Shown one piece after another: positions 32,966 through 48,307 of a stretch of 64,000 nt of DNA (its first letter is position 1; the number at the start of each line of letters is the position of its first letter). The DNA is taken from assembly GCF_013122565.1 (NCBI RefSeq), contig NZ_CP053258.1, one strand, 5' to 3'. The notes under the pieces were generated by a model, which was not told where the DNA came from, did no database searches, and saw only the letters and a program-made list of their open reading frames with translations. The position numbers were made by a program, and so were the translations under genes. Source of the stretch: Escherichia coli. GTDB taxonomy: Bacteria; Pseudomonadota; Gammaproteobacteria; Enterobacterales; Enterobacteriaceae.

Positions 32966-33239
32966 TTATAATTGAATTAATCCACGGATGCGATAGTTGA
33001 GATCTTACATATTGTTGGTTAAAGAGATGTAGATCAAATTGATCGTAATTAAGCTTTTTTGATTATGTCCGAATTCGGACAAATGCTTTATAAAAAAGGG
33101 TTTTAGCTTCATATCCTTCAAGTAATGAGGGAGAAAACAAGGCTGACAACCTTATTTTCCCGCCCTCATTTCGAGGCAGCATTTTGTGCTCTGTTTAAAA
33201 TTTGTGATCACTGTGTGATTTTCACAAAAGCCACACTAT

Positions 33240-34133
<894 letters not shown>

Positions 34134-34186
34134 TTACCTCATCAATCGCTTGTTGTTATATGTTGTGTTGTGCACATCTATCCATT

Positions 34187-34210
34187 TAGACGTCCAGATG
34201 TAAAGATGAA
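34187..34210. promoter_or_regulatory. Tandem MetJ boxes in the metF promoter
   Basis: agacgtcc-agatgtaa-agatgaag: three consecutive 8-bp repeats matching the met-box consensus AGACGTCT, upstream of metF. Confidence 0.55.
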
Positions 34211-34542
34211 GGAAAAGCCGAAGGGCGTCAACCGAAAAATGACCACTGATGGTGAGGAAATATCAGGGAAGTTGAAATTTTTTCATCTGAAGAAAAAAAC
34301 AGGGATACCAATGTTCAGTATGAGGTGAATATTGGGAAAATGCTGACGTTATTAATTTTATATTTATTTAAATGATGATTCATTCTGATTTATTTACTTA
34401 AAAAATGAATTATATTTTCAAATAAAACAAAAAGATACTTTAAGCCTCTCCGGCCTCCTCGCTTTTAATTTTGAACCACTTCAAACAAATAATAAATTCC
34501 TAAGAATTAAGTTGCAGACAAATTATACATCCCTCACGATAA

Positions 34543-34580
34543 GTAGAACGTTCTAGTAGAACGTTCTACTTATATAAATA
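34543..34580 (+). promoter_or_regulatory. Tandem perfect 12-bp palindromes (TAGAACGTTCTA x2) overlapping a -10-like TATAAAT; putative LacI-type operator and promoter for the EIICB operon
   Basis: gtagaacgttctag-tagaacgttctac at about 34543..34569, 55 to 80 bp upstream of the EIICB start, followed by tatataaat. The palindrome has the central CG and AACGTT core typical of LacI/GalR-family operators. Confidence 0.55.
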
Positions 34581-34623
34581 ATCGTTCTTGCGCAGTCATC
34601 TGCGCTATTCGGGGGAAATCAGC

Positions 34624-36123
34624 ATGGGTCTGATATCGAGTGTCGTAAAATCACTTTCTAAACTGTCGATGATTGGTCGCGCGCTGATGCTGCCAATTTC
34701 GCTTCTGCCTGCCGCCGGGTTGTTGCTGGCGTTCGGCGATAAATTCCACATGCCGTTGATGATGAATGCCGGCGGTATCATTTTTGATAACTTGCCGATG
34801 CTTTTTGCTATCGGTTCTGCCGTGGGACTGGCTTCAGAATCGGGTATTGCGGCGCTATCCGCAGCTGTATCCGTCTTTGTCACTAATATCACCATCGGTA
34901 CTGTCCTTGGCATCACACCAGAGATGGCCGGGCAAGGCGGTAAATATGCGATGGTGGTGGGGATCCCAACGCTGCAAATGGGCGTCTTCGGCGGCCTGAT
35001 ATGCGGGGTTCTGGCGGCGTGGTGTTACAACCGTTTTCATACCATGCAATTACCAGAATTCCTTGGCTTTTTCTCCGGCAAACGCTTCGTGGCTATCGCG
35101 ACGGCTTTTCTTTCCTTCATCCTTGGCTTGTTACTGCCCTATGTCTGGCAACATATTCAGTCGGGAATCGATGCCCTATCAGTTATCGTCAATGGTGATA
35201 ACCAGGCGGCATCGACCTTTATTTTTGGTGTGACAGAACGTGCGCTCATTCCGCTTGGCCTGCACCACATCTGGTATCCATCGTTCTGGTACTCTTTTGG
35301 TGATTACACCACCCAGGCAGGCCAAATGATCCACGGTGACCAAACAATTTGGTTCAAAATGCTGGAAGAAGGTGTGAAATCGTTCAGTAGCGACAGCTAC
35401 CATAACGCGGGTAAGTTTTTACAGGGCGAGTTCCCGCTCATGCTGTTCGCGCTGCCTGCGGCGTGTCTGGCGATGTACCATGAAGCACACACCAAAAATA
35501 AGAAAATTGCCGCCGGTATTCTGTTCTCTGCCGCATTAACCTGTTTCCTGACAGGTATTACAGAACCCGTTGAATTTACCTTTATTTTCGTGGCACCGGT
35601 ACTGTACGTATTCAACGCGATAATGGCTGGCCTCTCCTATATGGCGATGTATCTGCTCCATGCCCATATTGCAAAATCCTTCTCGGCAGGGCTTATCGAT
35701 TATATTTCGTTTGGCATCCTGCCATCATTTAACGGCTACGAAACCAACTTCCTGAGTGCCATTATTGTTGGCGTACCGATGGCGATTATCTATTACTTCA
35801 CTTTCCGCTTTGTTATTCGCCGTTTTGATGTGAAAACACCGGGTCGAGCCGAAAGCACCGTATCCGCTAACGATAAAACCGATGATGAACTGGCTACGGA
35901 AATTATCAGTCTGCTGGGCGGCCAACAAAATATCTCTTCCGTCGCATCCTGCATAACACGCCTGCGTCTGGAAGTGGCAGATAAGGATGTAGTTGATAAA
36001 GATGGACTGAACAATGTCGGTGCTCGTGGTGTGGTTTTTGTCGGCGATAACGGCATTCAGGTGATTTTTGGCGCACGTGCACAATTTATCGCGCAAACCA
36101 TGTCGACGATGATTGGCAAATAG
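34624..36123 (+). CDS. PTS glucose-family EIICB component, sugar specificity unknown; accessory
   Basis: About 499 aa from MGLISSVVKSLSKLSMIGRALMLPISLLPAAGLLLAFGD, preceded by a GGGGGA Shine-Dalgarno. A PtsG/MalX-like EIIC domain is followed by a C-terminal EIIB domain with the phosphorylatable Cys motif SCITRLRLEV. The ORF-track start at 34588 is probably too far upstream. No EIIA gene is adjacent. Confidence 0.85.
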   Translation: MGLISSVVKSLSKLSMIGRALMLPISLLPAAGLLLAFGDKFHMPLMMNAGGIIFDNLPMLFAIGSAVGLASESGIAALSAAVSVFVTNITIGTVLGITPEMAGQGGKYAMVVGIPTLQMGVFGGLICGVLAAWCYNRFHTMQLPEFLGFFSGKRFVAIATAFLSFILGLLLPYVWQHIQSGIDALSVIVNGDNQAASTFIFGVTERALIPLGLHHIWYPSFWYSFGDYTTQAGQMIHGDQTIWFKMLEEGVKSFSSDSYHNAGKFLQGEFPLMLFALPAACLAMYHEAHTKNKKIAAGILFSAALTCFLTGITEPVEFTFIFVAPVLYVFNAIMAGLSYMAMYLLHAHIAKSFSAGLIDYISFGILPSFNGYETNFLSAIIVGVPMAIIYYFTFRFVIRRFDVKTPGRAESTVSANDKTDDELATEIISLLGGQQNISSVASCITRLRLEVADKDVVDKDGLNNVGARGVVFVGDNGIQVIFGARAQFIAQTMSTMIGK

Positions 36124-36196
36124 TCATAAGATTACGCTTTGTTGGAGGTTCTGGTCCCTGACTGGAACCTTCGTACTTATTGTTCAGGGAGTGAAG

Positions 36197-37213
36197 TTGA
36201 AGAAAGTCAGCATAATTGATGTTGCCAAAAGCGCAGGAGTCTCGGTCTCTACTGTGTCGCTGGTCCTGCGCCAGAAAGGCAAAATTTCCGAGGCAACCAT
36301 CGAGAAAGTTCATGCTGCCATTACTGAGCTTGGCTACGTGCATAATGTTGCCGCCGCCAATTTACGCTCCAACACTTCAAATCTTATCGGTCTGATTTTA
36401 CGTGATTTTAGCGATAGCTTTTCCATCAAAGTGATGGCAAGTATTGTTCAGGAACTGGAAGCACAAGGATATATGGTTTTCCTCGGGCAACCACAGAACG
36501 AGCATGAACATCTTGAACGCTGTTTGCTTTCCTTCAAGCAACAAGGTGTTGCCGGAGTGATTTATCTGGCTTCCGATGCGCAGCGTGAAACCTTACCCGC
36601 GCTGATTCGCCAGTGCCCTCTTCCTCTTGTCGTCGCCTCACAATCCCCCATCAAAGATGAATGCAATCTGGTATTGCGCGACAACCAGCAGGCGGCAAGC
36701 CTTGCCACGCGTTATTTAATTGAGCGTGGACATCGTTACATTGCCTACCTCGGCGGCAGAGAAAGCGATCTTATCCGCCAACAGCGACTGGTGGGTTTTC
36801 GCCAGACCCTGGCAAAATTCGGTATTGCCAGTCGTGACGAGTTCACGCCAGCCTGTGACGATGATACATACGCCGCCAGCATGGCCACGCGCCAGTTGCT
36901 GGAGAATAACAATGCCATCACCGCCCTACTCTGCCATTCGCCCGAGGCCATGATTGGCGGTATCAACGGCATACATCAGGTGGGGCGCACCGTCGGGAGA
37001 GACATCTTTCTGACCCAGCAGGTGGCGCTAATTGGTTTTGAAGATATGCTGCACATCAATCTGACCTCGCCCGTTTTCACCTATGTCTCTTCCGCCAGTG
37101 AAGAAACCGGACGCCAGGCTGCTAATCTAATAATCCGCAAGTTAAAAGACCCGGAGCTGCAAATTCAAAGAATTGCGCTTTCCGGGCAACTGGTAGTGCG
37201 GGAATCGGCGTAA
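36197..37213 (+). CDS. LacI-family transcriptional regulator; accessory
   Basis: The N-terminal HTH (KKVSIIDVAKSAGVSVSTVSLVLRQKGKIS) is the LacI/GalR signature, followed by a periplasmic-binding-protein-like sugar-binding domain. The likely start is TTG or GTG at 36191..36197 after AGGGAG, giving about 338 aa; the ORF-track start at 36113 overlaps the EIICB gene. Confidence 0.8.
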   Translation: MKKVSIIDVAKSAGVSVSTVSLVLRQKGKISEATIEKVHAAITELGYVHNVAAANLRSNTSNLIGLILRDFSDSFSIKVMASIVQELEAQGYMVFLGQPQNEHEHLERCLLSFKQQGVAGVIYLASDAQRETLPALIRQCPLPLVVASQSPIKDECNLVLRDNQQAASLATRYLIERGHRYIAYLGGRESDLIRQQRLVGFRQTLAKFGIASRDEFTPACDDDTYAASMATRQLLENNNAITALLCHSPEAMIGGINGIHQVGRTVGRDIFLTQQVALIGFEDMLHINLTSPVFTYVSSASEETGRQAANLIIRKLKDPELQIQRIALSGQLVVRESA

Positions 37214-37336
37214 TTATTTCTGCCAGTCTCCGTCTTTAGCCGGCGGTCATCGCCACAACTGCACTGATGGATATGGTATTCTTTCGAGTATCTTTGCGGG
37301 CACTAACGCCAGGAGTATCGCCATGAGAATGGCGCG

Positions 37337-38818
37337 ATGAACACAGGGAATTTCGAGTCGATACAAATCATACTCGACGCGCAAGAGTGGCGTAGCCTGC
37401 CGCTGCATCTGCGTCTGTATCACGCTTTTCGCCAATTGGTGATTTCCGGCGCGTTGTCTGATGGCGCAAAGCTGCCGTCCGCTCGCGCACTGGCCCAGCA
37501 ACTTGGTCTTTCCAGAGATACCGTCGAAAATGCCTATTCCCAGCTTCAGCGCGACGGTTTTATGACCCGCAGGCAGGGAGCCGGGAGTTTCGCCAGCCGC
37601 CAGGGGATCCCGCAAATTCAGGGGCAGCACGCTCAGCCCCCCTCGCCCGGACAAGCACCGGCATTAACCGCCCGCTGGCAGCCGATTGCCGATCGCGCCG
37701 TCTCTTTCGATGCCCGCCAGATGCAGACCTTTACGCTTGGCCTGCCGGAAACGCGAAACTTCCCGCTAAACATTTGGCAGAACTTTTCCCGCCAGATCCA
37801 ACGTGAGCAGGCGCATACGCTGATGTTAAATAGCGATCCGCAGGGCGAGCCGGAGCTGCGCCAGCAAATTGCGCATTACCTTAATTTTGAACGCGGCGCG
37901 AAGGTAGATGCAGAGCAGATTGTGATTGTCAGCGGCGCACGGCAGGCGTTCTGGCTGTGCGGGCAACTGCTGGCAGAGGCCGGGCAATCAGTGGCGATGG
38001 AAAATCCAGGCTATCCCGGCGCGCGTCAGGCGTTTTCTGCCGCACAGCTTAATCTTCTTCCCGTTGAAGTGGATGACGCCGGGATCCGGGTGGATAAACT
38101 GCCGCCCGCACCGCTGGTTTACGTCACGCCGTCGCACCAGTTTCCTTCTGGTCATTTGCTCACGCTGGCGCGCCGTCACGCCCTGATTGCCTGGGCACAG
38201 GCGCACAATGCGTGGATTATTGAAGACGACTACGACAGCGAATTTCACTACACCAGCGCGCCCGTCGCCTGTCTGCAAGGGTTAGACTGCGAGCAACGCA
38301 CCCTGTATGTCGGCACTTTCAGCAAAACGCTCTATCCTGGTTTGCGCATTGGTTATCTGGTGGTGCCTGCCTCGCTGGCTGCGCACTTTGCCGCCGCACG
38401 TAATTTGCTTGATGGCGCAACGCCTGCGTTATCCCAACTGACGCTGGCGCGATTTATCGAGTCCGGTCATTTTGCCGCCCATATTCGCACCATGCGCAAT
38501 ATGTACGCGGTGCGACAGGCGAGCCTTGCAGAGGCTATTCATCAGCACTTAAGTGAATGGGTCACGCCAGTGGTGACATCCGGTGGATTACAAATGCCCT
38601 GCTGGCTGCATGAAGATGTTGATGAGCAACAGACGCTGAACGCGGCGCGCCGCGCCGGGTTAAATATCGCCGGGATGCGCCAGTTCTGGCTGACGCACCC
38701 CGCGCCCGCGGGCTGGCTGCTGGGATTCGCCGCCTTTACCCCCTACGAAATTGAGCAGGGAGTCAAGCGTCTGCGGGCTGCATTATGCGCTGAAAACGTG
38801 CGCCCAGCCGGGTCATAA
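37337..38818 (+). CDS. MocR/GabR-family transcriptional regulator (GntR HTH fused to a PLP aminotransferase-like domain); accessory
   Basis: 493 aa. The N-terminal winged HTH (LYHAFRQLVISGALSDGAKLPSARALAQQLGLSRDTVENAYSQLQRDGF) is followed by a long aminotransferase class I/II-like domain. Confidence 0.8.
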   Translation: MNTGNFESIQIILDAQEWRSLPLHLRLYHAFRQLVISGALSDGAKLPSARALAQQLGLSRDTVENAYSQLQRDGFMTRRQGAGSFASRQGIPQIQGQHAQPPSPGQAPALTARWQPIADRAVSFDARQMQTFTLGLPETRNFPLNIWQNFSRQIQREQAHTLMLNSDPQGEPELRQQIAHYLNFERGAKVDAEQIVIVSGARQAFWLCGQLLAEAGQSVAMENPGYPGARQAFSAAQLNLLPVEVDDAGIRVDKLPPAPLVYVTPSHQFPSGHLLTLARRHALIAWAQAHNAWIIEDDYDSEFHYTSAPVACLQGLDCEQRTLYVGTFSKTLYPGLRIGYLVVPASLAAHFAAARNLLDGATPALSQLTLARFIESGHFAAHIRTMRNMYAVRQASLAEAIHQHLSEWVTPVVTSGGLQMPCWLHEDVDEQQTLNAARRAGLNIAGMRQFWLTHPAPAGWLLGFAAFTPYEIEQGVKRLRAALCAENVRPAGS

Positions 38819-39869
38819 TCTCATACGGGATGGTGTCGCAGGCAGCCGCAACCTCTTCCAGCGTCTGGCCTGTGCCAATAAACTCCACCTTATCGCCCGC
38901 CGTCGGCGTGACGGCGCTGGCATCGACCATAAAGCTGTCCATACACACCCGCCCCAACACCGGTAACCGCACCCCGCGCCAGCATACGCCCGCCGGAGGA
39001 CGCATATTTCGCGGAACGCCATCCGCGTAACCCGCGGATATCGTGGCGATACGCAGCGGACGCGTGGCGGTAACCGTGCTGCCGTAGCCAACTGGCGTTC
39101 CGGCCGGAACATCCTGCACGCGCAGTATGGTCAGCGTCAGCGTAAAGACCGGTTTTAACGGCCTGGAAAACCACGGCTGGGTGACGCCAAACAGCGCAAT
39201 CCCCGGACGGCAGAGATCTTCCCGCCAGCCCGAGTGCAAAAACATCCCGCAGGAGTTCGCCAGCGAAAATCGGCTGCTGGGGAAAACCGTTTTTGCCTGC
39301 TGAAGTCGCGCGTGTTGCGCCATATTTAACGCATGATCCGGCCTGTCGGCGTTCGCCAGATGGCTGATGATATAATCCGGCGCAGGCCAGTTACGCTCAC
39401 GAAAAATCGCCGCCAGACGCATCAGTTGTTGCGACATCACGCCCAGCCGCGACATCCCGGAATCGAGCTGAATCATCACCGCACGCCGCTGCTGGCGCGT
39501 TTCCAGTAACGTAAGCCACGCCATCACCTGGTCTACGGAATTGAGCAATGGCGTGATCTGCTGCGCGTAACAAAATGCCATCGCCTCCGGCATAACCCCA
39601 TTAAGCACCACCACCCGCGCATCAGCGGGCAAGCATTTACGCAGCGCCACACCTTCAGAAAGCTGCGCGACAAAAAAGATCCGGCAGTTCGCCGCATACA
39701 GGGCGGGAGCAATCGCCTCCGCCCCCAGACCATAGGCATTCGCCTTCAACACCGCGCCACATTGCGCACGGGCAGCATGGCGGGCCAGGGTGCGATAATT
39801 TTCGACAATGGCGGCGAGATTGACGCACATAACGCCGCACGCCGCCTGAATTTCAGCAAGAGTTATCAT
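38763..39869 (-). CDS. Alanine racemase-family PLP enzyme (fold type III); accessory
   Basis: 368 aa. Contains the PLP-lysine motif [11 protein letters not shown] near the N-terminus and an Alr-like C-terminal beta domain. Overlaps the MocR 3' end by about 56 bp (convergent) and the downstream SHMT-like gene by 4 bp. Confidence 0.8.
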
Positions 39870-41104
39870 TGATAAGGCAACGGATAGCGGTTGGTTAGTT
39901 GTATTACTTTTTGCTCAATATCGGCGCAAATGTCTGCAATATCTGACGCGTTAATGGCCAGAATGATTTCACTTATCCAGTCAGCAATAAGCGCAAAGTC
40001 ATCCGCCTGCATCCCACGCGTGGTGCAGGCCGCGCTGCCAATACGAACGCCGGAGGTAATCGACGGCGGCTGCGGATCGCCCGGCAGGGTGTTTTTATTA
40101 ACCGTGATCCCCGCCAGTTCGAGAAAATACTCTACCTGTGCGCCGGTTAACCCCTGCGGGCGCAGGTCGATAATCCCCAGATGGCAATCGGTGCCGCCCG
40201 TTAACAGCGTCAGACCGCGCTGCGCCAGTTGCTGGCACATCGCCTGCGCATTGTCGATGACCTGCCCGGCATAACGTTTAAATTCCGGTTGTAATGCCTC
40301 GCCAAGCGCCACCGCTTTCGCCGCGATAACGTGCATCAACGGCCCGCCCTGCAAACCGGGAAAGATGGCGCTGTCGATTTTTTTCGCAAGCCGGGCGTCG
40401 TTGGTGAGGATCATGCCGCCGCGCGGCCCGCGCAACGTTTTATGCGTGGTGGTGGTGACCACATCAGCATACGCCAGCGGCGAAGGGAAACAGCCGCCCG
40501 CCACCAGCCCGGCAAAGTGCGCCATATCCACCAGCAAAATGGCGCCCACGGCATCGGCAATGCGGCGAAAACGGGCAAAATCATAGCGGCGTGGATAAGC
40601 CGATCCTCCGGCAATAATCAACCGTGGGCGCTCACGCAGCGCGATCATCTCGACTTCATCCATATCAATCAGGCCACTATGGGCATCGACGCCATAGTGA
40701 AAAGCGTTAAACCATTTGCCAGATTGATTGACCGGCGAACCGTGCGTGAGATGCCCGCCGCATTGCAGGCTCATGCCAAGAATTTTGTCGCCGGGTTTCA
40801 GCAACGCCAGATAGACCGCCTGATTCGCCTGGCTGCCGGAGTGAGGCTGCACATTGACGTAACGTGCGCCAAAGAGTTGCTGGGCGCGGGTTATCGCCAG
40901 CATCTCAACCTCATCAATAAACTTACAGCCGCCGTAGTAGCGATGCTGGTAATAACCTTCGGCGTATTTATTGGTTAACACCGACCCCTGCGCCGCGAGA
41001 ACAGCGGGGCTTACGAAATTCTCCGAGGCAATCAGTTCCAGCGACTACTGCTGGCGCTGTTGCTCCTGGTTAATCAATGCAAAAAGTGGATCGTTATTTA
41101 TCAT
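39866..41104 (-). pseudogene. Serine hydroxymethyltransferase (GlyA)-like PLP enzyme with an in-frame amber stop at codon 20
   Basis: Reverse-strand translation from ATG at about 41104 gives [50 protein letters not shown]..., then continues through the SHMT signatures HSGSQAN and [16 protein letters not shown]. The TAG is at about 41045..41047 where GlyA has Glu. The ORF-track entry is only the 371-aa reinitiation product from GTG at 40981. Confidence 0.75.
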
Positions 41105-41337
41105 GCGCTTCCCCCGAAAATTCATCATGCGATGATTTTCGCAGGGAAAACGTCGCCCGCACCCTGCCACTTTTTAGAATGAGCGCAGACCACCTATGTC
41201 GTTTTACTTAAAAGAAGAGGGAAGAAGGCTCCAGGCATCTCCATATGCGATTCTGGTTGGTAATACATCATATTCCAGCTGCTCTTATCTGCCTACGTTA
41301 TTGCATAGGCAGAATAAGGCAGCCTCAATACGTACTT

Positions 41338-42891
41338 TTACTTGATATATTTCACGCGCATACCGTTGATCTGTTCATCCGTGATGGTGTTACCCGCTTT
41401 GAAGTAATCAACCACGGCGTGATAAACGTAATAACCGCCCGTTGTGTTACGCGCTTTCCCTTCGGTAAAGGCGGTAAAACCATCTCCACCATCAGCAAGG
41501 AAACTCTGGGTGGCAATAGAATAAACTGTCGCATCTTCAATGGGTTTGCCATTCAGAGTCAGTGTGATTACCCGCTGACCAACCGGCTTGCTGCTGTCGT
41601 ACTTCATTTCCAGGCCTTTCGATACCTGTAAAACGCCATTACTTAAACTTGCGCCGTGTTCCATCAAACTGCGTAATTGTTTCCCTGTGAGATCCATCGT
41701 CACCAGTTCGTTGGGGAACGGGAAGGTACTGATGACGCCGCCCATCGTAATCGCCCCTGCGGGGATCTCATTGCGAATACCGCCAGAGTTGGTTAAGGCT
41801 ATTTGGGTGTTTTTACCCGCCGCTACCAGTAAAGCGTCAGCCGCCAGGTTCCCGAGGGAAGCCGATTCACCATAGGCACGTTTTAATTCAACCGGCGATT
41901 GCGCCACCGTTTGTTGCACCACTTCATCAAGCTTTTTATTCCAGCCGTCGATCACCTGTTTTGTTTGCGGATCGGGCTTCCACTCGTCGGCGTAAATGGT
42001 TTTCAGCTCGAAGTTTTTCACCGTAAAATCATGCGGCTTCTCTTTGTAGTCGAGGACCAGTTTGCCCACATCAATCCCGCCGCTGTCAGTGGAGAGGATG
42101 AGCGTATTGCCGACTTTAATCGGTTCCGGCGTACCCACATGTGCATGTCCGGTGATCAAAATATCCAGCCCTTTCACCTGACTTGCCGTCTGAATATCTT
42201 TATCCAGTGCGCGACGCACATCGGTCCCTCCCATACTGGACTGGCGGGCCGGAACACCTTCATGGATCAGGGCGACGGTCAAATCAACCTTGCCTTTAAG
42301 TTCATCGATATAACGTTGTAGCCATTTAATTTCATCGCGCGCTTCAATACCCACGCGCGTGGCAGCAGATACCGTATCGTTGAAAGCAAATACTCCGTGC
42401 AAACCTATAACGCCTATTTTCACGCCGTCTTTTTCGATGATGGTATATGGCTTATCCCAGAATGATTTACTGCTGTTCTGATAAAAAACATTGCCCTGCA
42501 CAATAGGGAATTTTGCCTGACTCAACTGTAATAATGTGTTGTCCCAGCCGTGGTCAAATTCATGGTTGCCTATCGTGACGGCATCAAACGGCATAGTATT
42601 CATAATATCGATAATAGCCTTACCTTTGGTCAGGCTGCTGATATATGGCCCGGTAAAATAATCACCCGCATCAAAAAACCATGTCGCTTTATTTTTTGCT
42701 TTTTCTTGCTTAACCAGCGTAGTGATATTTGCCCAGCCGCCAATATCCCGTTTACCGTCAGCGATCCACGGCACTTTATAAGGCTCGACATGCGCATGGA
42801 GGTCGTTGGTATAAATGATGGTGACATCTTTGGCGCAAGCCCAGAACGGCAATGTTAATGCGATACCCGCAGCAAGTATTTTAATTTTCAT
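41338..42891 (-). CDS. Secreted metallophosphoesterase / 5'-nucleotidase-family protein (UshA/CpdB-like); accessory
   Basis: 517 aa with an N-terminal signal peptide ([20 protein letters not shown]) and calcineurin-like phosphoesterase motifs ([36 protein letters not shown]), followed by a C-terminal 5'-nucleotidase-type domain. Confidence 0.8.
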
Positions 42892-43023
42892 AAATAGTCC
42901 CTTTCAGTGATTTAAAGGATTGCTACATTACGTTCTGAAAGAGTTATTTATGTGAGAGTAATCACATCCGCAGGGGATAGTTGCCGGACAAAATCAACGA
43001 CCTTGTGAAATCGTTGGTGATAT

Positions 43024-44154
43024 ATGTCAACTCTGTTTACGATTAATGCCTGCAAGTCGTTTGGTTGCCGTAATTTAGGGCAACCAACATCGACAGATTA
43101 CAGCTGGCCAGACTATCGACTGGGTTATCCGGCACTGCACTGTCGGGCATGTGGAAGTTACCCGCCGTTGTTTGACGAACAGCAATTTCGTGACTGGTTG
43201 TCAGTTCACTTATCTACTTTTGCAACTGAGAAAGGTCATTTCTGCCCGGTATGTTATGGCACAAAGACGATTTGTTATGGCCACAATCCACAGGGGTCGC
43301 AACGCATTCAATGTCGTAACTGCAAAAAAGTCTGGACACCTAAACAATATCAGAAAGAAATAACGCCTCCTGAAATAATCGAAACGGTTGCTCTTCTGGT
43401 GCCATTTCAGGGAGCCAGCAATGGGCAGAAACTGTATGTTTTAATCAGTTTTGATGCTCTTCGCGGTAATATTCTTCATCTTTCTACTAATTACACGCAG
43501 CATCAGGCTGGAGAAAGTCTGCATTATCGATACAGAGGAAATGCAGAACCAGAGTTACACGAGAGTAATATTGTACAACGCGTTGATATGCGCGAAGCAC
43601 AATTTCTACGCCGCAGTCAGTTTGATGAAATTCAGTATGGCAGCGCAGCGCTCAAACGCAATGCTAAAGGTATTATTCTGCGTCCGGTTATCACTGCACA
43701 CGGGCATTTCAGAGTACTGAATATTTTATTCCCTACAGTAAAAACACATGTAATTTCACACGAGTGTTTTTTAAGAGGTGCCATTATTACGGCATGGGCT
43801 GATCTGTTTCGCCAACAGCAAGGTGAAATTTGGTTTATTGAAGAGGAAATAGCTGACTATACCGATAATATGCCCTGGAGTTTTCAGGGAACAACATATC
43901 ACGGCTGGTGGAAAAATCAGTGGCAACTTTGGGGTCAGGGCAAAAATCGTAAAATGGTATGTGCATTAACAGGCGGAAATAACAGCAAAGCTGAAATGCT
44001 CTCTTTCGCAACCAGCAGACATTTTATCGACTGGCTACATAAACAAGCAGTATTTACTCACAGCACCCCGCTTTCCGCAGGGCGCGTTACGCAAATACTG
44101 CTTTCTCTGGCTCAGGATTACAACAACTGCGCCAGCCGGTTGATATCCGACTGA
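43024..44154 (+). CDS. Cys-rich protein with two N-terminal zinc-ribbon motifs (IS1 InsA-like finger), rest unknown; accessory
   Basis: 376 aa. Motifs C-x5-C...HC-x2-C and CPVC...GSQRIQCRNCKKVW; the latter resembles the IS1 InsA zinc-finger region (from memory). The last 12 codons overlap the metL 3' end on the opposite strand. Confidence 0.6.
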   Translation: MSTLFTINACKSFGCRNLGQPTSTDYSWPDYRLGYPALHCRACGSYPPLFDEQQFRDWLSVHLSTFATEKGHFCPVCYGTKTICYGHNPQGSQRIQCRNCKKVWTPKQYQKEITPPEIIETVALLVPFQGASNGQKLYVLISFDALRGNILHLSTNYTQHQAGESLHYRYRGNAEPELHESNIVQRVDMREAQFLRRSQFDEIQYGSAALKRNAKGIILRPVITAHGHFRVLNILFPTVKTHVISHECFLRGAIITAWADLFRQQQGEIWFIEEEIADYTDNMPWSFQGTTYHGWWKNQWQLWGQGKNRKMVCALTGGNNSKAEMLSFATSRHFIDWLHKQAVFTHSTPLSAGRVTQILLSLAQDYNNCASRLISD

Positions 44155-46550
44155 ATCGCCCCGGCGGTGACATCGCGCCCTGCGCCTGGTCCGCGGATCA
44201 CCAGAGGGTTATCGCGATACCAGCGGCTTTCGATGGCAAAGACGTTATCGCACGGCAGCAGTGATGCCAGCGGATGATCTTCACGCACCGCTTCCACGCC
44301 CACACGCGCTTTGCCGTTGGCATCGAAACGCGCCACGTAGCGCAGCACCAGCCCCATTTCGCGGGCCGCTTCCAGCCGTTGCAACATCTGCTCGTTGAGT
44401 TCATCGCCGTTTTCAAAGAAATGGTCGATGCTACCGCCTTCGCAATGGGCAGGCACCAGCGATTCCACGCGCACCTGATCCGGTTCGATGTCGTAACCCG
44501 CTTCACGCGCCAGAATCACCAGCTTGCGCATTACGTCTTTGCCGGAGAGGTCGTCACGCGGATCAGGCTCGGTTAAGCCCTGCTGCCACGCCTGATCCAC
44601 CAGCTCGGTAAACGGCACGCTACCGTCGAATTGCAGGAACAGCCAGGAGAGCGTGCCGGAGAAGATCCCACTGATCGACAAAATAGTATCGCCGCTGTCG
44701 ATCAGATCGCGCACGGTGTGGTTGATCGGCAAGCCCGCGCCGACGGTAGCGTTGTACAGCCAGTGACGCCCGGTTTTTTCGAAGGCGTCGTGGATCTGGC
44801 GATATTTATTGCTGTCGCTGGCTCCTGCCAGTTTGTTGGCGCTAATGACGTGGAAACCGTGGCTGGCGAAATCGAGATACTGGTCAGCAAGCTGCTGGCT
44901 GGCGGTAACGTCCAGCACCACTAAATCATCATACGGATGGGCGCGCATCCACAGGAACAGCGACTCTTCATCCTGCTCAACCGCTTCATCGTTGAAGAAG
45001 GCTAACGCGCGGCTGGCGTCCAGCCCGTCATAACTCAACAGGCTGCGGCGGCTGTCCACCACGCCTGCCAGCACAAATTCAAAGCCGGTACGTGCCGAAA
45101 GCGTGCTCTGCTCACGGGCGAACAGTTCCAGCCAGCGGGAACCGATATTGCCCTTGCCGAACAATACCAGGCCGATGCGTTTTTCCGCGCGGAAGACGGA
45201 CTGATGCAGCCCCTGAATCAGGCTTTCGGTCGGGCCGGTGCGCAGAACTGCCACCAGGCTGATGCCGTCATCGGACTGCCAGGTAAACTCGACCGGCTGG
45301 CCTTTCAGTTGCTGCCAGAAGCGGTGGCAATGCAGCGGGTTACGGGTGACACCCGCCCCGACCATCGCCACCAGCGCCAACCCCTGACGCAGGCGCAGCT
45401 CGCCAGGTAATCCCGCTTCGTCTAGGATTTTCAGCGCACTGTCGGCCACTTCTGAGGTGTAGCAAAATTGCAGCAACTGGCGATCGTTATGCACGCCAAC
45501 CGCCAGTGGGCGCACCTGCGCGCGTTTCAGGATCTGGTCGATCTCTTTATGCGCCAGTTTGAAATCCTGGCTGGCGGGCACCTGAAACTCAATCAAGCAG
45601 ACATCGTCGTGGCTGGTGACAATACGCGCACCAGTACCGGAGGCCAGCACGCGTTCAATGCGCGTGGAACCTTGATCCGGCGTGTAGCTACAGCGCAGTT
45701 GCAGGTCAATTTCGCTGCCTGATACCGGCTGTAAAGTACGGGCGTGGAGAACCGGAGCCGCCAGACGCGCCAGTTCGCTGGCTTCATCCAGACGCAGCAA
45801 CGGCAACAGGCAGGCATCTTTCACTTTACGCGGGTCGGCACTGTATACCCCGGCGACGTCGCTCCAGATGGTTACACGAGAAACACCCGCCAGCGCACCG
45901 ATTTGTGTCGCGGAGTAGTCGGAACCGTTACGCCCCAGCAGCACCGTTTCACCGGCGTTGTTACGGCTGATAAACCCGGTCACCACCAGACGTTTACCCG
46001 GATGTTGTACCAGTAGCTGTTGCAGCAACGGGTAAGAAAGCCCTTCATCAACCTGCGGCTGCGCAGCGCGTTCAGCGCGTAAAAACTCGCGGGCATCAAG
46101 CCAGGCCGCTGGCAGCCCTTGTTGATTAAGTACCGCAGACATCAGGCGCGCCGACCACACTTCACCATGGCCCACCACTTCCGCATACACCGCATCGTTA
46201 ATACCGCTGTCGAGCAGCGCCGCCAGGCGCTCAAGATCGCTGACAAAAGCGCTAATGAGGCTATCGGCTTCTTCAGCGGGTAGCAGACCGCTAATCAGAT
46301 CGCACTGATAGCGACGCAGCGTTTGTTGAACCTGATGCGCAGAGAGACGATCGGTCTGGCTTAGTTTCAACCAGTTAATCAACTGGTTAGTGGTGCTACC
46401 AGCGGCGGAAACCACCATCATATCGTCAGGCTGAGAGTACTCCGCCATAATGCCCGCGACACGCAAATAACACTTCACATCAGCCAGACTACTGCCACCA
46501 AATTTATGCAGTTGACGACCTTTCGCCCCTGCCTGCGCAATCACACTCAT
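44118..46550 (-). CDS. metL: Bifunctional aspartokinase II / homoserine dehydrogenase II
   Basis: 810-aa ORF MSVIAQAGAKGRQLHKFGGSSLADVKCYLRVAGIMAEYSQ... ending ...INRLAQLL. Confidence 0.96.
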   Translation of the reverse strand: MSVIAQAGAKGRQLHKFGGSSLADVKCYLRVAGIMAEYSQPDDMMVVSAAGSTTNQLINWLKLSQTDRLSAHQVQQTLRRYQCDLISGLLPAEEADSLISAFVSDLERLAALLDSGINDAVYAEVVGHGEVWSARLMSAVLNQQGLPAAWLDAREFLRAERAAQPQVDEGLSYPLLQQLLVQHPGKRLVVTGFISRNNAGETVLLGRNGSDYSATQIGALAGVSRVTIWSDVAGVYSADPRKVKDACLLPLLRLDEASELARLAAPVLHARTLQPVSGSEIDLQLRCSYTPDQGSTRIERVLASGTGARIVTSHDDVCLIEFQVPASQDFKLAHKEIDQILKRAQVRPLAVGVHNDRQLLQFCYTSEVADSALKILDEAGLPGELRLRQGLALVAMVGAGVTRNPLHCHRFWQQLKGQPVEFTWQSDDGISLVAVLRTGPTESLIQGLHQSVFRAEKRIGLVLFGKGNIGSRWLELFAREQSTLSARTGFEFVLAGVVDSRRSLLSYDGLDASRALAFFNDEAVEQDEESLFLWMRAHPYDDLVVLDVTASQQLADQYLDFASHGFHVISANKLAGASDSNKYRQIHDAFEKTGRHWLYNATVGAGLPINHTVRDLIDSGDTILSISGIFSGTLSWLFLQFDGSVPFTELVDQAWQQGLTEPDPRDDLSGKDVMRKLVILAREAGYDIEPDQVRVESLVPAHCEGGSIDHFFENGDELNEQMLQRLEAAREMGLVLRYVARFDANGKARVGVEAVREDHPLASLLPCDNVFAIESRWYRDNPLVIRGPGAGRDVTAGAIQSDINRLAQLL

Positions 46551-46552
46551 TT

Positions 46553-47713
46553 TTACCCCTTGTTTGCAGCCCGGAAGCCATTTTCCAGGTCGGCAATTAA
46601 ATCTTCGCCATCTTCAATACCGGTGGAGATACGCAGCAGCGTCTCGGAGATCCCGGCGGCAGCACGCGCTTCTGGTGCCATGCCTGCATGTGTCATGGTT
46701 GCGGCGTGAGAGATTAAACTTTCCACTCCCCCTAATGATTCCGCCAGCGTAAACAACGACAGCCCGCCCAGGAAACGACGCAGCGTCTGCTCATCGCCAT
46801 CCAGTTCAAAACTCAACATTGCGCCAAAGCCTTTTTGCTGACGCGCGGCAATTTCATGCCCCTGATTTTCCGGCAGCGACGGGTGATACAGTTTTTTCAC
46901 CAACGGCTGGGTTTGCAGATATTTCACAATCGCCTGCGCGTTACGCTGGGCCAGCTCCATACGCGGCACCAGCGTTCGCAACCCGCGTAGCAGCAGATAG
47001 CTGTCAAACGCGCCACCCGTCACGCCAATATTGTTTGCCCACCAGGCAAGTTCAGTGACAACGTCCGGGTCTTTAGCAATCACCACGCCGGCCACCACGT
47101 CTGAGTGACCGTTCAGATATTTCGTGCATGAATGCAACACCAGATCGGCACCTAATGCCAGCGGATTTTGTAATGCCGGGCTTAAGAAGGTGTTATCCAC
47201 CACGCTCACCGCCCCGACTTCCCTTGCCAGATGGCAGATTTTCGCAATATCCACGACGCGTAACAATGGATTACTTGGGCTTTCTACCAGTACCAGTTTG
47301 GGTTTTTCTGCCAGCGCTGCCCGTAATGCCTGTTCATCGCCTTGATCAACAAACAACACGCGATAGCAACCACGTTTCGCCAGGCTGTCGAACAGGCGAT
47401 AGCTACCGCCGTAGCAGTCGTGTGGCGCAACCAGCAGATCGCCAGGTTTCAAAAAGACGGTCGTTACCAGGTGAATCGCGGACATGCCGGTATTAGTAAG
47501 TACGGCACCAGCACCGCCTTCCAGTTCTGCCAGCGCACGCTGAACCACATCGCGCGTTGGGTTGCCGCGACGCGAGTAATCATGCACGCGCGGTTCATTA
47601 AATCCGGTAAAGTTATAGGTACTGGAAAGATGGATGGGTGGGACAACGCAACCATACTGTTCGTCGTCATTTAACCCGCTACGCACTGCGATGGTGGCCT
47701 GTTTACGCGTCAT
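46553..47713 (-). CDS. metB: Cystathionine gamma-synthase
   Basis: Canonical 386-aa protein starting MTRKQATIAVRSGLNDDEQYGCVVPPIHLSSTYNF; the ORF-track entry has a 59-aa extension. Confidence 0.95.
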   Translation of the reverse strand: MTRKQATIAVRSGLNDDEQYGCVVPPIHLSSTYNFTGFNEPRVHDYSRRGNPTRDVVQRALAELEGGAGAVLTNTGMSAIHLVTTVFLKPGDLLVAPHDCYGGSYRLFDSLAKRGCYRVLFVDQGDEQALRAALAEKPKLVLVESPSNPLLRVVDIAKICHLAREVGAVSVVDNTFLSPALQNPLALGADLVLHSCTKYLNGHSDVVAGVVIAKDPDVVTELAWWANNIGVTGGAFDSYLLLRGLRTLVPRMELAQRNAQAIVKYLQTQPLVKKLYHPSLPENQGHEIAARQQKGFGAMLSFELDGDEQTLRRFLGGLSLFTLAESLGGVESLISHAATMTHAGMAPEARAAAGISETLLRISTGIEDGEDLIADLENGFRAANKG

Positions 47714-47776
47714 GTGATGAAGTTCCCTGGGCTTGGTCGGTGAAATGTCAGGCACCAGAGTAAACATTGTGTTAAT

Positions 47777-47808
47777 GGACGTCAATACATCTGGACATCT
47801 AAACTTCT
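47777..47808. promoter_or_regulatory. MetJ boxes in the divergent metB / metJ promoter region
   Basis: ggacgtca-atacatct-ggacatct-aaacttct: tandem 8-bp met-box-like repeats between metB and metJ. Confidence 0.55.
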
Positions 47809-47989
47809 TTGCGTATAGATTGAGCAAATCCCAAATAGCCGTTAAAATTATATGCATTATCACGCCGACAGGTGCATTACACGATGTCACGGTAGCGCCT
47901 GTACGGTAAACTATGCGGGTTTACAGCCAGTGCCCACATTTACTGTGTGGTCTGGTCTCAATTTATTGACGAAGAGGATTAAGTATCTC

Positions 47990-48307
47990 ATGGCTGAATG
48001 GAGCGGCGAATATATCAGCCCATACGCTGAGCACGGCAAGAAGAGTGAACAAGTCAAAAAGATTACGGTTTCCATTCCTCTTAAGGTGTTAAAAATCCTC
48101 ACCGATGAACGCACGCGTCGTCAGGTGAACAACCTGCGTCACGCGACCAACAGCGAGCTGCTGTGCGAAGCGTTTCTGCATGCCTTTACCGGGCAACCTT
48201 TGCCGGATGATGCCGATCTGCGTAAAGAGCGCAGCGACGAAATCCCGGAAGCGGCAAAAGAGATCATGCGTGAGATGGGGATTAACCCGGAGACGTGGGA
48301 ATACTAA
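47990..48307 (+). CDS. metJ: Methionine repressor MetJ
   Basis: Canonical 105-aa protein [105 protein letters not shown]. Confidence 0.96.

Follow-up and report, generated by a model that had tools for sequence, protein, structure and literature searches.

What allows two pairs of facing genes, at either end of one block of an Escherichia coli chromosome, to run into each other's coding sequence? The window analysed here (64,000 nucleotides of contig NZ_CP053258.1) contains a MocR-type regulator gene that meets an alanine racemase gene tail to tail, and an accessory ORF that meets the core gene metL in the same way. Both overlaps are genuine. We consider it probable that they exist because the genes face each other without a spacer and their C-terminal tails are unconstrained; that the first was inherited and the second was made by a junction; and that a signal for the 3' end of metBL transcripts is embedded in the second pair.

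The MocR/Alr overlap

The initial annotation put the shared end of the first pair at about 56 bp, which the ORF listing and the stop codons bear out.

37337..38818, plus strand: MocR/PdxR-like regulator gene, 493 aa, with a GntR HTH and an aminotransferase-fold domain
38763..39869, minus strand: alanine racemase gene (Alr, "alanine racemase 3" type), 368 aa
38763..38818: convergent coding overlap of 56 bp, formed by the last 18 codons and stop of MocR and the last 17 codons and stop of Alr

Read directly from the sequence, the MocR stop is TAA (38816-38818) and the Alr stop is TGA (38765-38763). The regulator matched PF00392 and PF00155, and the PdxR model NF052282 at 435 bits against a cut-off of 320 (Pfam, NCBIfam); it thus has the N-terminal GntR HTH and the C-terminal fold-type I aminotransferase domain of the MocR/PdxR type. 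Its residues 9-485 align to the GabR and PdxR structures. Since the GabR alignment reaches residue 485 of 493, with 9 further residues in GabR itself, the C-terminus of MocR is typical of the family. Alr matched Ala_racemase_N and Ala_racemase_C, and TIGR00492 at 236.6 bits (cut-off 168; Pfam, NCBIfam); its nearest named relative is the Salmonella "alanine racemase 3" (83% identity). The Alr family is conserved to R358, with variable tails of 3-26 aa beyond, and its conserved motif YEIxTxLGxR falls within the 56-bp overlap. In MocR the conserved core extends to L483 (38785), in Alr to R358-R361 (38787-38798), so the two cores abut and each variable tail covers the conserved end of the partner.

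Synteny was compared through exact-protein look-ups in other genomes. The 56-bp length is kept in L001, L085/L086, L096/L097 and L098 (Escherichia, Salmonella and further loci), and the two stops are identically positioned in five independent loci belonging to two genera. In one relative (L087) the Alr stop was lost, Alr gained nine codons and the overlap grew to 83 bp. Shorter, non-overlapping orthologues had been named as the outcome that would unmask the annotated stops as false; the orthologues do not show this. A recent junction origin of this overlap in the present genome was considered and rejected on its conservation in Salmonella. Judged from sequence, the module came by its 56-bp overlap through inheritance, and the overlap is no annotation artefact.

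According to the frame analysis of the 56 bp, any substitution alters at least one of the two proteins: Alr-synonymous changes alter the tail of MocR (P490Q, G492E, E486G), and MocR-synonymous changes alter the tail of Alr. Conservation of the overlap is 98/89/82% against 94-95/84-87/77-78% in the flanks, a segment too short for significance. Folding of the overlap itself gave no significant structure (z = 0.69 and 0.15).

The Alr gene belongs to a module that also contains a serine hydroxymethyltransferase (SHMT) gene, next to which lies the divergent partner of the accessory ORF (ORF376) of the second pair.

39866..41104, minus strand: SHMT pseudogene, with an in-frame TAG at codon 20 (41047-41045)
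41338..42891, minus strand: metallophosphatase/5'-nucleotidase gene (Pfam/NCBIfam), divergent partner of ORF376

Alr overlaps the upstream SHMT gene by 4 bp, which suggests that the two share an operon. SHMT is intact (412 aa) in L096/L098 and in Salmonella, of which GCA_018535225.1 has an intact module; another internal stop interrupts the copy of E. coli 2013C-4282. Since SHMT is no longer intact in the window, the MocR-Alr module may be undergoing decay, and in this strain the overlap may lack functional relevance. The MocR-Alr-SHMT module, with roughly 60% GC, is rare, as just 3 of 5426 complete E. coli genomes contain it, and we propose that it was horizontally acquired. When GTDB genomes were scanned with a racemase peptide pattern, almost only unrelated Clostridia alanine racemases were returned, together with one 48% relative that has no MocR. 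The divergent pairing of the 5'-nucleotidase gene with ORF376, with a spacer of 132-133 bp, is kept at several chromosomal sites in other genera.

The ORF376/metL overlap

The second shared end is 37 bp long, as first annotated and as read from the ORF listing and the stop codons.

43024..44154, plus strand: ORF376 (Zn-ribbon ORF), 376 aa, an Enterobacteriaceae "cytoplasmic protein" with four CxxC pairs
44118..46550, minus strand: metL (aspartate kinase/homoserine dehydrogenase II), 810 aa, last gene of the core metBL operon
44118..44154: convergent coding overlap of 37 bp, with ORF376 Y366-D376 and stop antisense to the last 11 codons and stop of metL

The ORF376 stop (TGA, 44152-44154) and the metL stop (TAA, 44120-44118) were read directly from the sequence. 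MetL belongs to the aspartate kinase/homoserine dehydrogenase families of Pfam and NCBIfam and is named metL in all E. coli matches. ORF376 matched no Pfam family; its 253 homologues are spread over Enterobacteriaceae and share many invariant residues. One UniRef name uses the label of the IS1/IS1595 N-terminal zinc-binding domain. The match of residues 74-105 to this domain (NF050000) scored 21.3 bits, below the cut-off of 28, and the likeness is a resemblance only.

Across 17 members of the ORF376 family the last invariant residues are Y366 and N367, and this Tyr-Asn spans the metL stop codon. Beyond it the tails of the 17 members are 3-24 aa long and differ in sequence; the tail in the window, NCASRLISD, is specific to the metL-adjacent lineage, its last 9 codons and stop being antisense metL. 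Homology with an "empty-site" E. coli begins exactly at the metL stop, and everything rightwards of 44118 is core metL. Of 5,426 E. coli genomes, roughly 1,180 (about 22%) have the junction, ST131-type strains included, whereas the ORF itself occurs in roughly 1,750; short-form strains include LHM10-1, WP3-W18-ESBL-07 and the ST131 isolate MS14387. Five Escherichia variants (L002, L093, L094 and L095 among them) and Pseudocitrobacter (L088) share the 37-bp overlap. In Citrobacter the same two genes are separated by a 35-bp spacer with a REP-like hairpin directly 3' of the metL stop; in long-form E. coli 4.6 kb lie between them, with a canonical bidirectional terminator directly 3' of the metL stop (z = -3.85). 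The suspicion that a junction had created one of the stops is therefore supported for ORF376, where empty-site homology starts at the metL stop and the family is conserved to Tyr-Asn, and unsupported for MocR/Alr, whose overlap is inherited and whose ends are family-typical. As these alignments indicate, the 37-bp overlap is a junction product and not an annotation artefact.

We propose that the junction removed the spacer between ORF376 and metL, probably by a deletion of roughly 100 bp at a TACA(A/G)CA microhomology. It would have set the Tyr-Asn codons of ORF376 (TAC AAC) onto the Leu-stop of metL (TTG TAA in antisense), from where ORF376 would run 9 codons through antisense metL to a chance TGA. 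The microhomology at the junction is just 4-6 nt long and may be a coincidence.

Could one gene of each pair instead carry an aberrant 3' extension, through a lost stop or a frameshift, so that the true proteins do not overlap? A stop has indeed been lost in the L087 Alr, lengthening the overlap there to 83 bp, and the ORF376 tail after Tyr-Asn shows no homology to those of its relatives. The same positions of both MocR and Alr stops in five independent loci of two genera speak against this, as do the family-typical lengths of both proteins. ORF376, at 376 aa, lies within the family range of 371-419 aa, its non-overlapping orthologues are equally long or longer, and all four genes can be read without a frameshift. 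We regard such an artefact as highly improbable.

Overlap length and the absent spacer

In the frame that MocR uses antisense to Alr, an open run of at least 17 codons follows from 49% of entry points; in the frame that ORF376 uses antisense to metL, an open run of at least 11 codons follows from 71%. Once there is no spacer, the lengths of both overlaps equal chance expectation (P about 0.5 for MocR/Alr and 0.7 for ORF376/metL). The unusual feature is the absent spacer, not the length of the overlap. In a close relative, 7 convergent pairs are annotated in the 47 kb around the locus; two overlap (by 14 and 37 bp) and the other five are separated by gaps of 4-73 bp. RefSeq/PGAP annotates both overlaps in other strains.

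Both pairs consist of genuine conserved genes with a stop inside the frame of the partner, and both are conserved in orthologous loci, as is characteristic of convergent overlaps. Like the convergent overlapping pairs described in prokaryotes (Rogozin 2002; Lillo & Krakauer 2007, PMC2174442; Palleja 2008, PMC2478687; Huvet & Stumpf 2014, PMC4161906), they are opposite-strand genes that share 3' coding ends. As in those pairs, the overlaps arise from the position of the stop, are conserved mainly among close relatives and leave no room for an intergenic terminator. K-12 is reported to have 58-75 convergent overlaps, and the mean overlap across prokaryotes is about 26 bp (PMC2174442, PMC4161906). 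The two overlaps of the window exceed this mean, at 56 and 37 bp, but neither is "long" as the initial annotation had called them, since that term is applied to a 60-bp class (PMC2478687). Its statement that E. coli core operons rarely contain such overlaps is about right in view of the K-12 count, but three of the four genes are accessory here, which is a further difference from the known cases, as is the origin of the ORF376/metL overlap, which can be traced to a junction at a core gene's stop codon. Of the four overlapping genes, only metL is core.

A metL-sense hairpin within ORF376

With the intergenic DNA gone, a 3'-end signal of metBL would have to sit inside the coding sequence of ORF376. 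Folding the minus strand past the metL stop gave a candidate.

44045..44103, minus strand (metL-sense): embedded hairpin with a 13-bp outer stem and an 11-bp GC-rich inner stem, within ORF376 codons 338-361
44035..44046, minus strand: U-rich tail 3' of the hairpin, UUGUUUAUGU, in which 7 of 10 nt are U provided that the last two A-U pairs open

The hairpin starts 14 nt past the metL stop. As a 70-mer it has a folding energy of -38.2 kcal/mol (z = -7.73; 0 of 200 shuffles), is the most structured 70-mer of the whole window and ranks first of 25,574 windows after GC normalisation. Its stability depends on codon choice, for none of 2000 synonymous recodings of ORF376 reached it. It also depends on the strand: the ORF376-sense strand of the segment folds with just -23.5 kcal/mol, and the metL-sense strand is 15 kcal/mol more stable because of G-U pairs. 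On the plus strand at the metL overlap, folding was not significant (z = -0.77).

Seven orthologues that do not overlap metL lack the hairpin. Its confinement to overlapping forms counts as a single evolutionary event, because all metL-overlapping variants share one ancestral C-terminal segment. Over five variants 94% of cells are paired and no pair has changed on both sides. The segment containing the hairpin and the overlap is the most conserved 150-nt bin in L095 (95% versus 82-92% in neighbouring bins) and is among the best-conserved bins of that size in L088. Recombination with the neighbouring core gene may also be what conserves the shared C-terminal segment of ORF376.

We propose that the hairpin is a candidate metBL terminator or 3'-end stabiliser, in which a strand-specific stem and a U-rich tail would be built largely from synonymous codon choices. 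From its position, metBL transcripts would end some 80 nt beyond the stop, so that RNA overlap would be limited and not abolished. For 19 of 58 E. coli convergent overlaps, Rho-independent terminators have been reported inside the partner gene (PMC2174442), and bidirectional terminators between convergent genes are cited in 10.1101/2022.10.23.513370. The present hairpin resembles terminators placed within a convergent partner (PMC2174442; 10.1101/2022.10.23.513370) in being a stable stem-loop a few nt past the stop, with an A-rich 5' side and, if the two terminal A-U pairs open, a U-rich 3' side. It differs from them in being known as a predicted structure, in its unusually long stem (13 + 11 bp with internal loops), in being much weaker on the other strand, hence probably unidirectional, and in having apparently been assembled out of synonymous positions in a conserved stretch of the protein.

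An Alr-sense hairpin within MocR

38669..38705, minus strand (Alr-sense): tentative embedded hairpin with a 13-bp stem plus 2, within the MocR codons for IAGMRQFWLTHPAPA

This structure, 57 nt past the Alr stop, would be a weaker and tentative counterpart of the metL-sense hairpin. Its folding energy is -28.2 kcal/mol (z = -3.59; 0 of 200 shuffles), and just 2 of 2000 synonymous recodings matched it; after GC normalisation it ranks just 316 of 25,574 (top 1.2%). The sequence 3' of it, GGCGAUAUUUAA, is a poor U-tail. Over six loci 97.8% of cells are paired, the only changes being one-sided (GC/GU/AU), and no double compensatory change was found. In L087 an apparent compensatory change from G-C to A-U proved wrong, being two one-sided changes in adjacent pairs. 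In both hairpins it is mainly low sequence variation that preserves the pairing.

That the hairpins are no 3'-end signals at all, having arisen by chance, from absorbed REP-like or terminator relics, or as sites of RNase III processing, DNA cruciforms or recombination, appears to us somewhat doubtful. Both were found after the fact by scanning, neither shows covariation, the one within MocR reaches only the top 1.2%, and the metL-sense hairpin adjoins a recombination junction. A scan for consensus promoters and terminators did not flag any site within 300 nt of the four stops, in the case of the metL-sense hairpin probably because its stem has internal loops, and Rfam gave no credible family for 33000-48000. 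The first rank of the ORF376 hairpin and the failure of all 2000 recodings to equal it argue the other way, as do its strand bias through G-U pairs and its place 14 nt past a stop codon, followed by a U-rich stretch. An origin of the metL-sense hairpin as an absorbed REP or terminator relic was rejected: the peptide it encodes, LSAGRVTQILLSLAQDYN, is homologous throughout the ORF376 family, also in members far from metL.

Consequences for the transcripts

As 3'-end signals, the two hairpins would end or stabilise the transcripts of the minus-strand operons and keep antisense read-through in check. MocR and ORF376, on the plus strand, have no such signal and would depend on Rho or on polymerase collision. 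A different reading is that the complementary 3' ends were selected as an excludon-type coupling, in which expression of each facing partner would lower that of the other, by transcriptional interference or by RNase III cleavage; regulation of this type has been documented for bacteria (PMC7154746, PMC12288877). The overlaps of both pairs are kept across genera, no consensus terminator separates the genes, and MocR regulators normally control the neighbouring operon, here the SHMT-Alr operon lying tail to tail with MocR. However, the overlap lengths equal chance expectation, adjacency is dispensable for ORF376 and metL (35 bp apart in Citrobacter, 4.6 kb in long-form E. coli), and a strong hairpin past the metL stop would limit read-through instead of promoting it. 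Excludons and regulation by overlapping 3' UTRs (PMC7154746, PMC12288877) likewise involve convergent neighbours and require overlapping transcripts; the present locus is set apart by an embedded hairpin that argues for early termination. We judge such coupling unlikely.

Returning to unconstrained tails that meet without a spacer, a more far-reaching form of this proposal seems to us possible rather than probable. The microhomology deletion would have taken the original hairpin along with the spacer, and selection on synonymous and conservative codons would have rebuilt a metBL terminator within ORF376, so that a stretch of roughly 125 bp would encode a conserved protein segment together with an opposite-strand terminator and, farther along, two proteins at once. 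MocR/Alr would then perhaps represent an earlier or weaker stage.

The value of the locus is that of a clean documented case, not of a new principle: moderately long convergent overlaps can be explained in full by loss of the spacer, unconstrained tails and the scarcity of stops in GC-rich antisense frames. It can serve to calibrate genome scans and annotation rules. Should the hairpin prove to be the metBL terminator, nature would have supplied a regulatory RNA signal in the synonymous sites of an opposite-strand gene, one that about a fifth of E. coli genomes share. This would bear on constraints on codon choice, on the design of overlapping genes and on the reading of "silent" variation beside core operons.

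The site is that of the variable metL-metF region GR31 of APEC BEN2908 (PMC12928451), and it shares with GR31 the genes for the 5'-nucleotidase and the Zn-ribbon ORF. The published region is the longer form, with extra nucleotidases and Tsx. In contrast, the window carries the short form, in which the ORF is fused to the end of metL, together with PTS/MalI-like genes and the very rare MocR-Alr-SHMT block.

Organization of the metL-metF region

The accessory region of the window is bounded by the core genes metF and metL, and the genes lie in the following order:

33240-34130 (-): metF, core gene
PTS EIIC gene: first large ORF between metF and metL
MalI-like regulator gene: second in order, between PTS EIIC and MocR
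37337-38818 (+): MocR/PdxR-like regulator, ORF
38763-39869 (-): alanine racemase (Alr), ORF
39866-41104 (-): serine hydroxymethyltransferase (SHMT) gene, pseudogene with in-frame TAG
41338-42891 (-): 5'-nucleotidase, ORF
43024-44154 (+): Zn-ribbon ORF (ORF376), 376 aa
44118-46550 (-): metL, core gene

The metL-metF interval (window ~34281-44117) is a multi-state variable region, already catalogued among ExPEC/APEC genomic regions (PMC12928451), its right edge being exactly the metL stop and its left edge ~150 bp upstream of metF. Its states are the empty K-12 type, LysR+CMD+nucleotidase+ORF, a short form (ORF376 overlapping metL), a long form that also carries further nucleotidases and Tsx, and variants to which PTS/MalI-like genes and the MocR block have been added. 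An AT-rich, strongly structured 70-mer (34536-34605 (-), GC-normalised z = -4.85) lies just upstream of the PTS EIIC ORF start and overlaps it.

Convergent overlaps

As the initial annotation had stated, the MocR and racemase frames have 56 bp in common (38763-38818) and the Zn-ribbon ORF and metL 37 bp (44118-44154); all four stop codons are readable directly in the sequence, and the PGAP annotation of related RefSeq genomes contains the same overlaps. Reading the antisense strand of each partner gene in the frame actually used gave open runs of at least 17 codons from 49% of start positions in the racemase and of at least 11 codons from 71% in metL. The overlap lengths are not beyond chance, antisense stop codons being sparse because of the GC content of both regions (~58-64%); therefore the missing spacer alone is unusual. 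The latter is itself not extreme when compared with the same neighbourhood in E. coli LHM10-1, where 2/7 convergent pairs within 47 kb around the locus overlap, one by 14 bp and one by 37 bp, and gaps of 4-73 bp separate the genes of the other five. In LHM10-1 yijO/frwD is annotated with a 14-bp convergent overlap (L099 3267-3280), presumably also extant in the upstream region of the window, and the fpr/uspD pair has a gap of only 4 bp, convergent genes of this neighbourhood being generally packed tight.

Convergent overlapping genes are a well-described class to which both pairs belong; E. coli K-12 has 58-75 such overlaps (PMC2174442, PMC4161906). The mean overlap across prokaryotes is ~26 bp (PMC2174442), and within the "long" class (at least 60 bp) only convergent overlaps are sometimes real (PMC2478687). 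Both overlaps are an ordinary phenomenon, and nothing here requires excludon-type mutual regulation of convergent pairs (PMC7154746, PMC12288877), which may nevertheless play a part.

The Zn-ribbon ORF/metL junction

Compared to an E. coli genome with nothing between metL and metF, homology starts precisely at the metL stop codon (44118), the DNA to its left being region-specific. ORF376 belongs to a family of Enterobacteriaceae "cytoplasmic proteins", in which (17 aligned members) Tyr366-Asn367 are the last invariant residues, followed by tails of 3-24 residues with wholly different sequences. In the window, the codons TAC AAC for Tyr-Asn span the metL Leu-stop on its antisense strand, and the last nine codons (NCASRLISD) with the TGA are antisense metL. 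The homology break and the antisense-metL origin of the residues after Tyr-Asn support the proposal that a junction supplied the stop of this ORF.

The same junction with its 37-bp overlap is present in ~1,180 of 5,426 E. coli genomes, and also in Escherichia sp. E2593, one ENA assembly and Pseudocitrobacter cyperus. In Citrobacter, the ORF376 homologue faces metL but has a tail of 23 residues and is set apart by a 35-bp spacer that carries a REP-like hairpin. In a second E. coli form, the ORF is separated from metL by two nucleotidase genes, a tsx-like gene and a canonical bidirectional terminator. From a microhomology of 4-6 nt, we infer that the junction would have originated by a deletion of ~100 bp between TACA(A/G)CA at the ORF Tyr-Asn and the same string at the metL end, which would convert a Citrobacter-like layout into that of the window.

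The ORF376 family is always divergent from a 5'-nucleotidase gene, with a spacer of 132-133 bp (window 42892-43023). The pair occurs at various chromosomal sites in Klebsiella, Enterobacter, E. albertii and Salmonella, often with more nucleotidases and a Tsx channel (comparison loci L085, L090, L091, L092). Residues 74-105 of ORF376 show a weak, below cut-off resemblance to the IS1/IS1595 Zn-ribbon; the protein may regulate a nucleoside-scavenging cluster or be its domesticated transposase. The Pseudocitrobacter ORF (L088 8001-9134) is a mosaic when compared with window 43024-44154 and the E. coli long-form locus (L001 8688-9815): over the N-terminal two-thirds it is like the long-form allele and over the last ~90 residues like the short-form one, nucleotide identity climbing from 71-79% to 89% at ~43885. 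This mosaic identity suggests intragenic recombination.

Hairpins embedded in the facing genes

A scan for consensus terminators was negative up to 300 nt from each of the four stops, and folding of the overlaps themselves revealed no structure. Two hairpins lie further inside the facing genes:

44045-44103, metL-sense (-): metL hairpin, 14 nt past the metL stop
38669-38705, inside MocR: Alr hairpin, 57 nt past the racemase stop

The metL hairpin consists of an outer stem of 13 bp and a GC-rich inner stem of 11 bp, then UUGUUUAUGU. The 70-mer containing it has a folding energy of -38.2 kcal/mol (z = -7.73 relative to dinucleotide shuffles) and ranks first in structure after GC normalisation among 25,574 70-mers of both strands of the 64-kb window; the next ranks include REP-like sequences and a hairpin just after the 5'-nucleotidase stop. 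It lies wholly within ORF376 codons 338-361, and its stability is equalled by none of 2,000 synonymous recodings of this peptide. On the ORF-sense strand, folding gives no better than -23.5 kcal/mol, since several pairs of the metL hairpin are G-U. In metL-overlapping orthologues the corresponding segment has a folding energy of -39 to -43 kcal/mol, against only -19 to -28 kcal/mol in seven orthologues located elsewhere or apart from metL. Relative to Klebsiella, five changes fall in the inner-stem arm (four synonymous, one a replacement) and two, both conservative replacements, in the outer-stem arm. Covariation in the hairpin was looked for and none was found; its carriers all have one ancestral segment in common. 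The segment adjoins a core gene, and recombination between them may occur.

We infer that this hairpin, lying within the facing gene, is a putative metBL operon terminator or 3'-end stabiliser, and that it would stand in for the intergenic hairpins of other configurations. Terminators within the coding sequence of the partner are reported for about a third of E. coli convergent overlapping pairs (PMC2174442). The new detail is a probable, testable terminator in the synonymous sites of an opposite-strand gene.

The Alr hairpin (z = -3.59) is conserved in six loci and was matched by only 2/2,000 synonymous recodings. It ranks 316th of 25,574 after GC normalisation and has no good U-tract, therefore we treat it as a tentative transcript-end signal. 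No comparable hairpin was found on folding downstream of the two plus-strand genes, MocR and ORF376, for which Rho termination in untranslated antisense RNA would be expected by default.

Second in structure among the 70-mers of the window is 41266-41335 (-) (GC-normalised z = -5.3). It follows the 5'-nucleotidase stop directly, on the right-hand edge of the inserted block, and is probably the terminator of that gene; Rfam gave only a spurious sub-threshold microRNA match.

The MocR/racemase overlap and its block

The MocR-Alr-SHMT block (~37217-41330; GC roughly 60% versus ~47% in its neighbours) is inserted between the MalI-like and nucleotidase genes, and only 3 of 5,426 complete E. coli genomes contain it (identity 95%). 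The nearest relative of the racemase is "alanine racemase 3" of Salmonella (83%), the next-nearest, alphaproteobacterial enzymes among them, being at most 49% identical. A junction in this genome as the origin of the overlap was not borne out, the same 56 bp being shared by E. coli 2013C-4282, Salmonella and two further assemblies. The observation of the initial annotation is confirmed and its interpretation stands in part: a junction origin is upheld for the Zn-ribbon ORF/metL pair, but not for MocR/racemase.

The MocR TAA is unchanged across four aligned loci, while in a 75% relative the racemase stop is lost and the overlap extends to 83 bp. Conservation in the racemase family extends to YEIxTxLGxR (R358), after which every member has a few additional variable residues, and MocR can be aligned to GabR through residue 485 of 493, with nine residues of GabR left beyond that point; by these alignments, neither protein is abnormally extended. 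In the overlap, the wobble position of each gene is opposite position 2 of the other, therefore each substitution alters at least one of the two proteins. Substitutions within the conserved racemase motif leave the racemase sequence unchanged and affect the MocR tail (E486G, P490Q, G492E); those in the conserved last MocR helix (RLRAAL) leave the MocR sequence unchanged and affect the racemase tail. Since the substitutions sort by conserved element, the conserved cores abut at ~38785-38798, and the overlap consists of disposable tails alone.

The SHMT gene has an in-frame TAG at 41045-41047 (codon 20) and is therefore a pseudogene in this genome. E. coli 2013C-4282 has a different internal stop, and Salmonella and two other assemblies an intact 412-aa gene; the differing stops suggest that the module has been decaying independently within E. 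coli. In these two other assemblies (L096/L098 1-1035) a gene encoding a NEL-domain (E3-ligase effector-like) protein adjoins the block.
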